Source: Octopus vulgaris (Eukaryota). Taken from it: a stretch of DNA of 64,000 nucleotides. The position numbers were made by a program, and so were the translations under genes. This document shows positions 7,485-53,903 of the stretch, in pieces. Location of the stretch: positions 63,426,001 to 63,490,000 of the forward strand of contig OX597831.1 of NCBI GenBank assembly GCA_951406725.2, read 5' to 3'. Every line of letters starts with the position of its first letter. The first letter of the stretch is position 1. A model generated the notes under the pieces. That model was given only the letters and a program-made list of their open reading frames with translations. It searched no databases and was not told the DNA's origin.

Positions 7485-7671
7485 TATTTTTTTTTGTTAC
7501 AGTCATTTGACTGCGGCCATGCTGGAGCACCGCATTTAGTCGAGCAAATCGGCCACAGGACTTATTCATTATAAGCCTAGTACTTATTCTATCGGTTTCT
7601 TTTGCCTAACCGCTAAGTTACGGTGAGGTAATCACACCAGCAGCGGTAGTAAGGTGATGTTGGGAGTACAA

Positions 7672-7720
<49 letters not shown>
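7485..7720 (-). mobile_element. SINE family B, 3' half
   Basis: CAGTCATTTGACTGCGGCCATGCTGGAGCACC..GTACTTATTCTATCGG shared with many copies in the window. Confidence 0.9.
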
Positions 7721-7742
<22 letters not shown>

Positions 7743-7770
7743 CTCAAAATAAGCAACACGAATAACCTCG

Positions 7771-7866
7771 TTAATTTGGTACGTTCGTTTCACGCTACAT
7801 CATTTTATTAAATGTTGTAAGTATTACAACAGTTTTAAAATGTTGAGCAATCATCAGCTATTAATA
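7771..7866 (-). ncRNA. Type I hammerhead motif with ~60-nt extended stem II
   Basis: Reverse strand: TTAATAG-CTGATGA-TTGCT..CATTTTA..TGTTGTAA-TAC-TTACAACA..TAAAATG..AGCGT-GAAAC-GAAC-GTA-CCAAATTAA. Stem I is imperfect. Confidence 0.65.
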
Positions 7867-8112
7867 GAGGTTTTTCCTTAATACATAATTTTCATATCAA
7901 TTGATAACATTATGGAGAAGGTAGATATATAGACAAAGATGTGGATTTAAATTTTAAGAACATTAAAGGTAGTGGAGTTTATCAACTGACTGAAGAATAT
8001 TCAGAATATTCAGTTGTTTTGAACTGCTAGAAGGTTTGGGAAGAATGATCAATTGAAAGGAGACAAGAAAGATTTTCTTTTTATAGAAATAGGGGTGAAA
8101 TAGATATCTAAG

Positions 8113-8165
8113 CGTGAAACGATCGTACCAAATTACCGAAGTTATTCTTGTTGCGTATTTTGATT
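8113..8165 (+). repeat. Inverted second copy of the 3' half of the 7742-7796 hammerhead element
   Basis: GCGTGAAACGATCGTACCAAATTACCGAAGTTATTCTTGTTGCGTATTTTGA matches the reverse complement of 7742-7796. Confidence 0.75.
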
Positions 8166-8269
8166 ATAATCACCCTATGGATTTATATGGATAACACCAT
8201 ACAAAATTCTGGTGCATCTAACTTAAGTACCATATTAATTTGAATCTAAATATTGCTGAACTTATTTAC

Positions 8270-8339
<70 letters not shown>

Positions 8340-8511
8340 TCATTATAATAATATAGAAATCTCTTGTAGGAATAGTTTTATCCAAGATACACTGGTTTAA
8401 TATATACATTGAAGATATAATTTTTAAATAAATATATTATACAAATAAATATTATTAAGTAAGAAAATGGAGGGGTATAATCGATACAAATTAATTTTTG
8501 ATTAATTAACA

Positions 8512-8615
8512 TTGCCTACAACCGTTTCAATTTACACTGAATACAATTAACAAAATATATAGAATAAAATAATTTTGCATTTTTTAAGATTATGAATGAA
8601 ATATCTTCGGGGCAA
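8512..8615 (-). ncRNA. Type I hammerhead motif with ~75-nt extended stem II (core U4 to C)
   Basis: Reverse strand: TTGCC-CCGAAGA-(long AU-rich arm incl. GCAAAAT/ATTTTGT)-GAAAC-GGTT-GTA-GGCAA. Stem I is a perfect 5 bp. Confidence 0.65.
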
Positions 8616-9776
8616 AAAGGACATTACCGACTTTACATGTGAATCAGTTGAGGTACTCCAACAGATTAAGTAGAGGAAAGCAGTGTGTGTGTATGTGTGT
8701 GTGTGTGCGTGTGTTCGTGCGTGTGTGCGTGCGTGTGTGTGTGCGCGCGCGTTAATAGTTCATTTAAATATACCAATCATGTAATGATTTAAATTTAATA
8801 ATAAATTAAAGTACATAAAAACAAATGATTACAATAAGGATAATTAAAAATGAAAATAAAGATAAAAAATAAAAATGAAAATAAAAATAAAAGTAATAAA
8901 GTAATAATTATGAAAATATATAAAAACAATATCTAAAAATTGTATTAAAAATATTCATATATACATATATAATGAAAAAAGCAATATAAAATAAGGATAT
9001 GAAATAAAAATAGTAACTTTATACATATGGATGTCTATGGTTTATTCAAAATCACATGTGAGTGTGTGTGTGCGCATATAAAAATAAAAGATAAAAAATA
9101 AAGATAAGGATATAAAAACAAAAACTTAATAAATATGAATGTCTAATGTCTGTTTGAGTTTCTGTATGATTATGTGTGTGAGTGTATATGGACGCTTACT
9201 GTTTATATTAATTTATGAGTGCGTATGCGGGCATGAATGTTAGTAAAAGCTTGTCGAATCAAATCAGTTTATTCATATATTTATATGTGCATATATTTAT
9301 ATACATCGACATATAAAAACTATAGAGAATGATAATGTATGTTAGAGACCCAAAAACCACTTATATGATTTATTATAATATAAAACAGTAACATGATTTA
9401 GTATATTTTTTTTGTGTTTCTATAATTGGTCCAAAATAAAAATGAAAGTAAAAATAAAAATAAACATCAAACGGAATTCAGTACATCTAATACTAAATAA
9501 GTATATTTATATTTATATCGATATTCAAATTAATCTAATAATAATAATTCATTATAATTATTAATTCGTATTACACACACACATACACATACACACAAAT
9601 ACGTGCTTATTTTACAGGCATCCAAGATTAGTATATCATCAAAATTAGTCTTATCAATAGATATTGTATTACAATCTGAAATTAGATGTATCATATTAGG
9701 AAATTAATTTACAACCATTAACACTTAATATTATTATTAAAAGGACCCTTGAGCATTATATTAGATATATTATATT

Positions 9777-9879
<103 letters not shown>

Positions 9880-9974
9880 TATTTAATATTAGGTTTATAA
9901 ACTAATTTAGACTTATTTCATTATTCAATTATGTTATCTTTATTGATTAAACTTACTAAAAACATATTTAGAGT

Positions 9975-10116
9975 AATGACTAGTTGTTACATTCTTTTCT
10001 AGAATTAATTAATTTGTGTTTATATTTTAGTATTTGGAAAAACTCTTCTGTACAAAAGTGATATTTTTTATCTGAATTATTATAAGCTCTGGAATGACTT
10101 ATAATTTCCCATTTAG

Positions 10117-11012: not shown

Positions 11013-11569
11013 ATGTATATACACCCGCGCACACGTACATGTCCAGGCATAAATACCTATGTATATGAATACATACGCATACATATGCATACATGCACAG
11101 ACAGACACTCATGTACTTGTACGTCCCAGCATACATACACTCACTCACATTTCATCATAGTGTACTCTTCCGTGTTTGCAAGTTCAACAGAAAATGCACT
11201 CTCTGGTGAGACATAAATATCAGTTAGTAAACACATATTTTTTCATTAGCTAATAATAGTTTCATGCGATGAAAAACAACTCAAACTACATTTAATACCA
11301 CGTCTGGTTCCTTCATACAGACCTCAGGCTCTCCTCACATGCCATAACAAGCTAAAACAGGACGATAGGATAAAATAAAATACGCGTAAAGGCGAAAAGG
11401 AAGTAGATGTAAATGGTGGAATGTTGAAAACTCCGGAAAACGGAAAATAAAATAAAAATGAAAGCCGGGGAGAAATGAAGTTATGTATCCTTTGACCGGA
11501 AAGTCATGAGTCTGAATAGATAGGAGTCTGTGGTAAGCTGCTCAGTTCGGATCGGGTGGTATTTTCCAA

Positions 11570-12045
11570 TTCTCCAACAGGAAATTCTCCATATGTTTAC
11601 ATTCACTGAAAATTTCAGATCTGGATTTCAGCAGTGCGGTGGAATTCTTAGATATGAAAAGGATTTATGTCTTTTCCGCTACGCATAGCTTCCATGAGAA
11701 CTTTTCAACTATTTTCCACTTGGTAGTACGGGGTGTGACGTTATACTTCAGACCATATACATAGCTTTACTTTTGACCCTGTGACGCAATGAAGATATAT
11801 GGTTAGCATGGCGATTTATTTAGTCGCCTTCACATAACTTGATGTAGCTTTTTATTTCGGTATTGCTATCATCTAGCGTTGATGTAACTTCTGCCTCACA
11901 TATGACGGGTTTAATCATGCACGCCTGGTCGAGTGGGCAGTTACCTGGGTCTCTATAGTTACAAATGATAATAGGCTCTAGGTCTTGTTTGCGTTTAATG
12001 ACGCTCTTCATATTGAGGGAGCAGCTATATGATAATTTGACTGAC
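11570..12045 (-). mobile_element. Penelope-like element GIY-YIG endonuclease, decayed
   Basis: KLSYSC..NMKSVI..CNY..CPLDQACMIKPVICEAEV..SYIKLCEG..RHANHISS..LCVAEK..RSEIFSECKH. Confidence 0.8.
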
Positions 12046-12051
12046 CGCCTG

Positions 12052-12540
12052 TTAAATATTTGCTGAGTTAGACTCGAGAAAAGTCTTACATACTTTTACT
12101 GTTCCACTTATGGATTGTATTTGTAATATGCGAGTTAGTTGGTTGATGTTTTTTCTGAAAACCCCCAACTGAACTAGATTGTTGCTTAAAAATTTATTCA
12201 CAAAACCAAACGCTCCGATTATTATTAGTATAAATGCAAATTTATAATCTGGATACAGGGACTTGTGGTTTCGAAGCAGTTGTCCATAGTCATCCACTTT
12301 CTCTCTGATTTTCAAACGGATATTCACAGCAATAAGACACGTGACTTCTTTGAAGATACATTCATTTTTTTGTCTGCCTCAACCTACAATACCTGGCATC
12401 TTAAGCATACAGTTGACAGATGTTTTGTTGGGAATGTCCCACCAATATCCTTTGTATTGATGTTTGTGTACATATTCATTAACAGAGGTATTCTCTATAT
12501 TTATTCCAGCAGAGTTTAATTTTCCGGATGGCATTGTATA
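12052..12540 (-). mobile_element. RLE non-LTR retrotransposon endonuclease fragment (same family as 2200-3090)
   Basis: EKVDDYGQLLRN..LYPDYKF..IIIGAFG..LQIQSISGTVKVCKTFL. Confidence 0.8.
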
Positions 12541-29271: not shown

Positions 29272-29838
29272 CAACAATTGAGGGTAAAATTAATTAATTA
29301 TTAATCAATTTCACCAAGTATTCAGTATGTAAAGGGACCATTTTAGGCGAATTCAAAATATTACATTATATATAAGGGCTTAGTAAAATAAATTACTTTG
29401 CCACATACTGAACTCATTAGAAATAGCAGCTAAAGAAATTTCTTTAGCTATTTCTAATACTTAAAGAAGATCTCTCTCAGATAGTGTTTGCTCAAACCAA
29501 CTCACAAAGGTATGGGGGAAAAAACATTAAAAAATCAAGTGCAAAGGTTATTTGAGAACGTACGTTTCTAGATTAGTCAAATCGACATTTCTTTCGTCAG
29601 CTCAGAACTCCTTGATTCGGATTTGGGAACACTGAAAGTGGGAGCATACCCTTTTGGCTTCTTATCACCTCTAGAATTCTGCTCGAACTAAAAGTGCTTT
29701 CAAATTCAAAATATGCAAGCGAAGAATTTCTGCTCTCCCCTTTCCACCAGCGTGGGTTGAAATTGATAAACACTATGTTTTATCGGTGAAAACCGGAGCA
29801 TTAAACAGAGAGAAATGAATTATAATTTCAACAATTGA
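29264..29838 (-). mobile_element. 575-bp non-coding hammerhead element within (TA)n, bounded by 18-bp direct repeats
   Basis: TATAATTTCAACAATTGA at 29264-29281 and 29821-29838; internal hammerhead and several hairpins. Confidence 0.75.
29553..29604 (-). ncRNA. Type I hammerhead ribozyme, intact core
   Basis: Reverse strand TGAG-CTGACGA-AAGAAATGTCGATTTGACTAATCTA-GAAAC-GTAC-GTT-CTCA: stem I TGAG/CTCA, palindromic ACGTACGT stem III, GUU cleavage triplet. Confidence 0.8.
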
Positions 29839-51523: not shown

Positions 51524-52621
51524 GATAAAATTAATTCCTTGCTGTCGAGAAATATATCGAGCCGTTGACAGATATCCGTGTGAATTGAATAAATTCAATA
51601 TGAGATCGAATGTCGTGAGTCAGCTAACATATGTATTAGATAATTAGGTAATCTGAAAGACAGAGAGAGACAGAGAGAGAGAGAGAGCTTCTATCTTAAT
51701 AATAAAGCCGATGTCGATAATAGAGGACTACGGTCAGGGGTGAATTCAGGAATAATTTCCTCTGCTCTTCTTCGATCCCAACAAGGTTTCTAGCTTAAAA
51801 CGCAAATTGTAAATGAATCAGTCGTTAATTAATTCCTTACAGTCCATACTTTCTCATGTCCTTGCTATTATTTACAGCCAGATTTTCCGCATCAGTGAAA
51901 ATTAAGTGATTGTTGCTACGTACACAGCGTAGAGAGGGAACAGAATGTATGAACCATCAAACCTATTCTATATAGGTCGATATTCTATCAACTTGTTCTC
52001 AAGCCAGCCACTTTCATATTCCAATCAAGTATTTCTTATTAGACTGACCTCTTTTCAAGTTGCCATACTTAAATATTAATTACAAATAAGAAATGTAGTT
52101 TTCACAGCTTTCGAGATCTGCCTGCGGATGCGACGGTGTATCGAGCTAAAGTGAATTTCTATGATGTCGCTCGATCTCTTAGAAATATCTGCCACATTTA
52201 CTTCAAATCACACTGCACTCACTTAAAAAGGAGTACGTGAGAGATAATGTAGCTGTAGGTGCATTCTGCAGGGGATAAAGGCAGGATGATCATGGTCTGA
52301 ATATCTTAATTAATGGGTCTGTTCGGTCAATGCTCAAGTGAGGCTAAACGACAACAGTCACAAAAAAAATCATACATCCCGAAAAGGAACAAAATGATGG
52401 TTATTAAAAATATATTTACTAGGAAATCATGAAAAAAAACCCAGACGATATGCCCAGCTGAATATTAACTCAAAATATAAACAAGAAAAAATTTAAATTT
52501 TGTGTTAGGTTTGAAGGTCTAAACTTCCGATTGTCCTTCCTTTGCATCACTACAATGCATCCCTAAAAATATATAACGAACCAAAAGAAAGAAGTTTGGT
52601 AGAAAATGCATTCAAATCTCC

Positions 52622-53634
52622 TGAATAGCACAGCCTCTTGCCTTAAATACGGATTGTCTTAAATATGGATTGAATAGCACTGCCTCTTGTCTTAAATACG
52701 GATTGTCTCAAATATGGATTGAATAGCACTGCGTCTTTTTCTTAAATACGGATTTCTTAAATACGGATTGAATAGCACAGCCTCTTGTCTTAAATATGGA
52801 TTGTCTTAAATATAGATTGAATAGCACTGCCTTTTGTCTTAAATACGGATTGTCTTAAATATGGATTGAATAGCACTGCCTCTTGTCTTAAATACGGATT
52901 GTCTCAAATATGGATTGAATAGCACTGCGTCTTTTTCTTAAATACGGATTTCTTAAATATGGATTGAATAGCACAGCCTCTTGTCTTAAATATGGATTGT
53001 CTTAAATATAGATTGAATAGCACTGCCTTTTGTCTTAAATACGGATTGTCTTAAATATGGATTGAATAGCACTGCCTCTTGTCTTAAATACGGATTGTCT
53101 TAAATATGGATTGAATACCACAGCCTCTTGTCTTAAATACGGATTGTCTTAAATATGGATTGAATAACACAGCCGCTTGTCTTAAATACGGATCGTCTTA
53201 AATATGGATTGAATAGCACAGCCTCTTGTCTTAAATACGGATCGTCTTAAATATGGATTGAATAGCACAGCCTCTTGTCTTAAATACGGATCGTCTTAAA
53301 TATGGATTGAATAGCACAGCCTCTTGTCTTAAATACGGATTGTCTCAAATATGGATTGAATAGCACAGCCGCTTGTCTTAAATACGGATCGTCTTAAATA
53401 TGGATTGAATAGCAAAGCCTCTTGTCTTAAATACAGATTGTCTTAAATATGGATTGAATAGCACAGCCGCTTGTCTTAAATACGGATTGTTTTAAATATG
53501 GATTGAGTAGCACAGCCGCTTGTCTTAAATACGGATTGTCTTAAATATGGATTGAATAGCACAACCGCTTGTCTTAAATACGGATCGTCTTAAATATGGA
53601 TTGAATAGCACAGCCTCTTGTCTTATATACGGCT
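52622..53634. repeat. 49-bp minisatellite, about 20.5 units
   Basis: Unit TGAATAGCACAGCCTC-TTGTCTTAAATACGGA-TTGTCTTAAATATGGA-T. Confidence 0.97.
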
Positions 53635-53704
53635 CGAGTATCTCCGATCACAGGTGTACTTGATTCGGAGTAAACTGAAGCTAAACACAAAAACTCTCTA
53701 TTTT

Positions 53705-53903
53705 AATTTTGGGCACAAGACCAGCTACTTTTGGAGGAGTAGGAAGTTAGCTACATCGATCCTAATGTTCAACTGGTGCTTATTTTGGTGATCCCGAAGT
53801 AATGAAAAGCAAATTCGACCTCGGCAGCACTTGAACTCAGGACATAAAGCCGACGAAAATGCTGCTGAATATTTTGTCAGACGCAGTAATGATTCTGCTG
53901 CCT
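53705..53903 (-). mobile_element. Old SINE C
   Basis: Diverged core ATGAAAAGCAAATTCGACCTCGGC. Confidence 0.75.

Follow-up and report, generated by a model that had tools for sequence, protein, structure and literature searches.

A window of 64,000 nucleotides from Octopus vulgaris (by the window we mean this whole stretch of DNA) carries two minus-strand motifs that look like hammerhead ribozymes with very long stem II arms. We asked what these two motifs are, whether their long arms belong to a real class of structured RNA and why the two lie so close to each other. In the earlier note they had been read as a cluster of partly decayed copies of an elongated stem II variant, which searches limited in length would miss and whose arm has about the size of a pre-miRNA or of an ADAR substrate. 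The features that we found in this part of the window are listed in Table 1.

Table 1. Features of the two hammerheads and of the surrounding elements, in window positions.
Feature	Position	Strand	Remarks
Stem I of hammerhead A	7777..7860	-	7860-7858 pairs with 7779-7777
Hammerhead A, core to cleavage site	7780..7857	-	CUGAUGA, arm, GAAAC, loop, GUA
5'-truncated 3' UTR/pLTR of family A element	7743..8112	-	'short' 3' end, 37 nt past the cut, in (TA)n(TG)n
Inverted second piece of family A	8111..8262	+	'long' end with tail, ~135 nt past the cut
(TA)n(TG)n run	8263..8337	.	A and B elements meet there tail to tail
Family B element	8338..10114	-	5'-truncated; ends ~180 nt past the cut site
Hammerhead B	8512..8615	-	5-bp stem I, CCGAAGA, 75-nt arm, GAAAC, loop, GUA
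Last ~40 codons of family B GIY-YIG endonuclease, decayed	9992..10114	-	tblastn E 4e-10, 67% identity to related copy

We could confirm both motifs on the minus strand. The first, which had been placed at 7771-7866, consists of CTGATGA (7857-7851), a 59-nt arm (7850-7792) and GAAAC-GAAC-GTA (7791-7780), with a predicted cut 3' of 7780. The nested helices that had been described for its arm can be recognised, and the arm has a fold z-score of -4.36, which none of 200 shuffles equals. The second, for which a perfect stem I TTGCC/GGCAA, the core CCGAAGA and an arm of ~75 nt had been given, consists of TTGCC (8615-8611), CCGAAGA (8610-8604), a 75-nt arm (8603-8529), GAAAC-GGTT-GTA (8528-8517) and GGCAA (8516-8512), and its cut is predicted 3' of 8517. 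This arm is no better folded than shuffled sequence (z +0.17, 110/200); that of a related copy elsewhere in the genome (L214) has a z of -4.52.

With a loose descriptor we found four matches with arms of 20-120 nt in the 64-kb window. The mean for 100 local dinucleotide shuffles was 0.18, and no single shuffle had more than one match. Equal frequency in shuffled sequence, which had been named as a reason to give up the idea, is therefore not what we see. One of the four matches, at 29557-29600, is a short-arm motif of a different family. Another of the four, a plus-strand match at 7990-8127 (119-nt arm, z -0.2, stem I absent), was rejected as a chimera at an inversion junction.

Each of the two motifs belongs to a repeat family of its own. 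Family A has 1,580 candidate places genome-wide, and the 40 that were scored have mostly 94-95% identity. The majority form of the family is a full type I hammerhead with a stem I of three pairs and a perfect 8-nt palindrome over stem III, and the core, stem I and the palindrome are all intact in 22 of the 30 best copies. Two positions set the window copy apart from this majority: a G-to-A change costs it one pair of stem I, and the other difference breaks the palindrome. Family B has 321 candidate places, of which 40 were scored (73-92% identity). Its majority form is again a full type I hammerhead, with wobbles in the stem III palindrome and TA-rich arm tips, and the full core is kept in only 10 of 30 loci. 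A tight pattern of family B has no exact match and a looser one has five, so that the family must be old and diverged. Eight differences separate the window copy from the majority, five of them in the arm; another turns the core CUGAAGA of the family into CCGAAGA. This U4C variant has lowered activity in vitro, according to the part of PMC3088659 available for comparison. The type I core (CUGANGA, GAAA and UH around three stems) is present in both majority forms and in window copy A. In summary, the description of the two copies as partly decayed was apt, and the family majorities restore the core, stem I and the palindrome.

We searched the genome (2.8 Gb, 227 contigs) for the strict pattern CUGANGA-arm-GAAAC-RAUY-GUA and used the reversed pattern as a control. 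In these counts, which exclude other stem III loops and decayed copies and may include a few places twice, there are 10,026 matches with arms of 50-80 nt (control 6), 2,134 with arms of 31-49 nt (control 3) and 3,485 with arms of 6-30 nt (control 9). Long arms of 50-80 nt thus make up ~64% of the strict matches for the given stem III type (10,026/15,645), and the genome-wide descriptor search that the earlier note had asked for speaks for its variant. There are many families with arms of 43-84 nt, the sequences of which look unrelated, and the overall range is from 16 to 84 nt. Among 71 cluster representatives (of 151 distinct matches), which include decayed and chance matches, the arm has a z of -2 or lower in 26 cases and in none does it reach +2. 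One lineage has arms of ~36, 39, 44 and 68 nt with common base strands, a series pointing to an arm that may have grown stepwise at its tip. Families with arms of 16-31 nt have spread as well, one of them very recently, which means that a long arm is not essential.

Next, we consider the elements that carry these hammerheads. Long copies of family A continue upstream into a C-terminal endonuclease and then into a reverse transcriptase (RT). A hammerhead of the A group, with an arm of 49-60 nt, is found in 30 of the 41 loci taken around related RT matches, and several elements with open frames of 941-984 codons have it in both pLTRs. The layout of the group is that of an EN+ Penelope-like element (PLE): between pLTRs lies one ORF, which encodes the RT and, C-terminally, the GIY-YIG endonuclease, and tandem and inverted 5'-truncated copies occur. 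The repeat unit is ~4.6 kb long (L106), with 970-1090 codons and asparagine-rich inserts. In L106 the first ATG lies ~210 nt past the cut site, so that the arm is non-coding there. In the proteins of five loci (L104, L106, L107, L108 and L134) we find RWK, DKT, the CxCx5C linker, CxxC and CxH, while CCHH is absent; this is the diagnostic list of the Hydra clade in the part of Craig et al. (2021, PMC8557442) compared here. Family A itself (L084) and family B have the linker and endonuclease motifs, and the N-termini are missing from the recovered pieces. The same part of that paper gives (TA)n as the preferred target of the clade, and each of the 30 family A copies ends at a TA, CA or TG repeat. 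It also gives a length generally under 3 kb, which the A group exceeds; a young family with 31-nt arms has 2.6 kb. Judged by their protein motifs, both elements would be Hydra-clade PLEs. Pfam gave no match in three short fragments, and the domain names are for this reason based on motifs.

Family B was recovered only as decayed pieces of the RT thumb, the linker and the endonuclease. In the window, the end of its endonuclease lies upstream of hammerhead B at a distance of 1.4 kb, with both in one orientation, and two other loci (L208 and L214) repeat this order. Around B-like endonucleases, no hammerhead was found within ~1.4 kb of flank in any of 30 loci; the reason may be decay or flanks that are too short. 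We considered an RT fragment that lies between two B copies (L123) as the parent of family B and rejected it, since its close relatives have a different, 31-nt-arm hammerhead and are themselves not similar to B; we take it as a probable nested insertion. In an endonuclease tree built from pieces of this genome only (18 rows and 142 columns, with good support for 3 of 15 branches), long arms occur in at least four lineages with two changes between the labels long and short, which is compatible with one or several origins.

Two further observations concern the same type of element. A third decayed Hydra-type remnant, with linker and endonuclease, lies at 11566-12065 on the minus strand of the window (tblastn E 3e-16), and no intact hammerhead was seen downstream of it. 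Furthermore, loci L134-L153 represent the very young 2.6-kb Hydra-type family, with a frame of 717 codons and many near-identical and tandem copies. U4C is fixed in the core of its hammerhead; an older relative (L136) keeps U4.

To what extent is the long arm a conserved structure? Among 17 related subfamily sequences of the A group (with the tested structure drawn from one of them, no tree correction and family B left out), 12 of the 27 pairs change on both sides; stem I, with 4 pairs, contributes 3 of these, and the arm, with 21 pairs, contributes 9. The covariation score of 0.369 compares with 0.188 in shuffles, 0 of 500 being as high, and slid controls give at most 0.125. Most of the same arm pairs were predicted independently by RNAalifold. 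For the A group, the idea of an elongated stem II is thus borne out by covariation.

Helix II has ~17-27 predicted pairs with internal loops. The tip of the arm lies ~20 pairs from the core, so that the canonical tertiary contact between loops I and II of fast natural hammerheads is unlikely here. The short stem III with an 8-nt palindromic dimer loop is present, as in the minimal (dimer-type) hammerheads of PLEs. For monomers of A, C and D, the predicted inactive shape lies 2-5 kcal/mol below the active one, and when two copies are co-folded without constraints, the majority forms of A and B as well as families C and D give a double hammerhead. The double hammerhead is absent from the co-folds of window copy A and of a B-like copy (L208). 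In a context of 211 nt, the pLTR of L106 does not adopt the hammerhead fold, and it is no more stable than shuffles (z +1.18).

Our preferred reading, to which we would give a probability of roughly 0.6, is that both motifs are decayed type I hammerheads at the 3' ends of two PLEs with Hydra motifs, and that the intact forms have arms of 59 or ~75 nt and are likely to self-cleave only as dimers. A read-through transcript of tandem copies would contain one hammerhead per pLTR. The monomer would be inactive because its stem III has only two pairs. Two copies could then pair via the 8-nt palindrome and swap their stem I strands, which would result in a double hammerhead that cuts after GUA; on the folding models, such dimer-dependent cleavage of tandem transcripts is likely. 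The protein of the element would probably assist, by analogy with what the part of Frangieh et al. (2024, PMC11167929) compared here reports for an element of the green anole. Reverse transcription would have two alternative start sites, ~37 and 135 nt beyond the cut, and insertion into (TA)n would leave pieces of the kind seen in the window, 5'-truncated and inverted.

As to the arm, we infer that it is an outgrowth of loop II, which would have been lengthened stepwise by small duplications while selection kept it paired. A self-closing AU-rich hairpin would hold helix II together, hence the selection for pairing. In families A and B there is a U-U at the base of helix II and only 4-5 proximal pairs; the arm may thus hold helix II closed where its base is weak, a structural role and not that of a separate RNA product.

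The preferred reading also bears on how the two elements came to lie together. The two family A pieces of the window have the usual truncated-and-inverted form. The inverted one begins at the base of stem II and keeps GAAAC, the palindromic loop and stem I', while its own CUGANGA is absent. Among the 30 family A copies, the 3' end lies 35-41 nt past the cut in 20 and 116-146 nt past it in 10, and the adjoining repeat always starts at one of these two end positions. Two start sites of reverse transcription, such as have been reported for the anole element (PMC11167929, in the part compared), would give these two classes. The family B element has an AT-rich 3' UTR that is broken up by microsatellites. 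The (TA)n(TG)n run between the elements is likely to be the target that they share. Since the stem I sequences of A and B differ, the two should be unable to exchange strands in the way that the predicted dimer does. What had appeared as a cluster is therefore not a functional pair: two unrelated families abut tail to tail at a (TA)n target that they probably share, the clustering is a shared-target effect, and both window copies are dead relics without special function.

There are other ways to explain the arm. It may be that it mainly binds or positions the RT-endonuclease of the element and in this way sets the start sites just downstream, which would leave the identity of the hammerhead unchanged; we consider this possible, albeit unlikely. 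In families A and C, a fixed distance of ~37-41 nt separates the arm from the short 3' end downstream, and the anole hammerhead is protein-assisted (PMC11167929, in the part compared). Several arm positions do not vary among the 17 subfamilies, and one of these is a U five pairs from the junction, which is bulged in most subfamilies, although this invariance may stem from common ancestry. A binding site is also hard to reconcile with the arms of different lineages, given their unrelated-looking sequences and wide range of lengths.

A second idea, which is tentative and in our opinion rather improbable, is that in cephalopod Hydra-type elements a helix II of 50-80 nt replaces the loop-loop contact and in addition serves as a handle by which the protein of the element, or editing by ADAR, turns cleavage on or off. 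If so, the description of hammerheads as small, or as lacking in some Penelope clades, would partly reflect the limits of searches.

Potentially, the arm could also be neutral: loop II swells by slippage and becomes self-complementary via template switching during copying, without selection on RNA structure. The continuous series of lengths and the TA-rich tips in family B would fit this, as would the stability of sense and antisense arms, which shows no significant advantage of the sense strand (sense better in 17 of 30 representatives, p 0.17). On the other hand, arm pairs contain 30 G-U cells against 13 A-C cells (12 against 5 column types), bulges keep interrupting the arms, which do not move towards perfect palindromes, and the length stays at 57-60 nt across subfamilies in which RT fragments are ~60% identical. 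We therefore regard a neutral arm as distinctly improbable.

Still less probable, in our view, is an arm that acts as a pre-miRNA-like hairpin, or as one under the control of ADAR, and thereby silences or switches the element. Drosha substrates have longer and more stable stems with single-stranded flanks. The AU-rich arms here are interrupted and weak, with a three-way junction closing them, and fold at ~-10 to -18 kcal/mol with large internal loops, and Rfam miRNA matches in the region are microsatellites below the gathering score; the suggestion of a pre-miRNA finds no support in these results. The case of ADAR is less clear-cut. In six runs that we guessed to be RNA, 36 of the 128 change places listed are A>G, versus 2 of 22 in each of two large DNA-like runs, a contrast (Fisher p 0.07) between places that are not independent, in runs of guessed type, from unmatched individuals and in the form of contigs, which are unable to show cleavage or transcript ends. 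A few of these places are inside the arm and one is at core position A15.1, so that a weak hint of editing stands. Its confinement to the arm does not, as most of the extra places lie outside and are spread over the whole pLTR; this is what long duplexes between inverted copies, common here, would lead us to expect. As a separate observation, positions 2436-2808 of L106 show extra A>G in the guessed-RNA runs, including stem I positions and the core A15.1, again in unmatched data. Editing of inverted-copy duplexes could disable the ribozyme.

Finally, chance matches in AT-rich repeat DNA, for which one might cite the imperfect window copies and the lack of an Rfam hammerhead match to them, are refuted by the genome-wide excess over the reversed pattern, by the covariation and by family majorities that are nearer to the consensus than the window copies are.

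How do these hammerheads, read as parts of Hydra-type elements, compare with those already described? In the parts of the literature compared, the published min-HHR descriptor allows a stem II of 3-7 bp and a loop of 3-10 nt, hence an arm of ~25 nt at most (Cervera and de la Pena 2014, PMC4209133), and the arms of 59 and 75 nt in the window fall outside it. Length-capped descriptors thus undercount ribozymes. The Rfam hammerhead models gave no match in 7745-8680 at E up to 10 and, at the gathering score, none in six loci, four with long and two with short arms. The claim that length-limited searches miss the variant therefore holds for the descriptor, but the Rfam miss is not specific to arm length, since short-arm loci are missed too. 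The minimal pLTR hammerheads of metazoan PLEs in that paper have much in common with those described here: the position in the pLTR, a short stem I, a weak or palindromic stem III, predicted action as dimers, truncated copies that occur singly in their thousands, and closely spaced inverted pairs. In contrast, a helix II is called large there at 6-8 bp.

The hammerheads of the Hydra clade (PMC8557442, in the part compared) are among the closest to ours. They share the type I topology at the 3' end, the palindromic stem III, often an extra U before stem II, the (TA)n targets and the protein motifs, and the clade includes an Octopus member, Hydra-1_Obim. However, the arms listed there are ~12-26 nt long (~23 in Hydra-1_Obim), compared with 43-84 nt here. 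The same part of the paper contains the only precedent that we found for long PLE arms, two spike-moss elements (PLE-X1_sMoe and PLE-X1_sTam) with PLE hammerheads whose stem II and loop take ~50 nt, and which are marked as deviating from the canonical structure. These are two single entries from a plant, in the endonuclease-less Chlamys lineage, and come without structure analysis in that part; in the octopus, the long arm covaries, is found in many families and is the majority form for its stem III type. As for the claim of a long-arm variant, the elongated and covarying stem II of PLE hammerheads stands, and long arms as such have this precedent.

The PAc hammerhead of the green anole Poseidon (PMC11167929, in the part compared) shares the pLTR location and the two start sites, which explain short and tailed 3' ends. 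Its ORF begins in stem II, unlike the non-coding arm of L106, and its tail has 30-40 nt compared with ~100-120 nt here. Our literature comparison, for which sources were available in part, also covers PMC6765202, PMC6155905, PMC13725137, PMC7229834, PMC6962438 and two bioRxiv preprints. In it, we found no account that treats long-arm PLE hammerheads as a class of their own, though long stem II variants may appear in Lunse et al. 2017 or Arkhipova et al. 2017, which lie outside the comparison. The link between hammerheads and PLEs is already known; what appears to be undescribed is an animal genome in which a long paired arm is the majority form. This genome offers a natural series of related elements whose arms have lengths between 16 and 84 nt. 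Among these elements are several with open frames and near-identical copies, so that the effect of helix II on cleavage, dimers and protein assistance can be tested.

A different lead, possibly more interesting than the long arms, concerns Naiad elements, which are said to be without canonical hammerheads (PMC8557442, in the part compared). Inspection by eye and one alignment, on which the lead rests, suggest that Naiad 3' ends may carry non-circularly permuted hammerheads. In the records that precede Naiad_Hpol and Naiad_Lpol in the file of that paper, and that would by file order be a nematode and a spider element, we see all core blocks in the order C-S-G. Both have stems I, II and III of 5-10 bp and a helix joining stems I and II, and their sequences differ. 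The octopus Naiad end appears to have the order S-G-C, with a stem I of 6 bp, a stem III of 5 bp and ~2 pairs of stem II, and a squid Naiad end the same order with stem II pairing absent; three further ends have no such blocks in the part displayed. A 19-nt octopus Naiad motif has 327 exact matches (control 0; loci L270-L281). Types CSG and SGC have been described from metagenomes and metatranscriptomes (PMC10085705, in the part compared), and our literature search found no report tying them to Naiads.

Other repeats in the window deserve a short mention. The short-arm match at 29557-29600 is a minus-strand hammerhead with a 25-nt arm, from another repeat family that we also see in L152 (5278-8074) and in L087. 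L152 contains six identical motifs of this hammerhead in tandem units of ~559 bp, an array that looks like a non-LTR retrozyme array. At 7494-7738 there is a multi-copy repeat of ~245 nt with at least six further copies in the window, which we presume to resemble an octopus SINE. An array of a 49-bp tandem repeat occupies 52524-53754.
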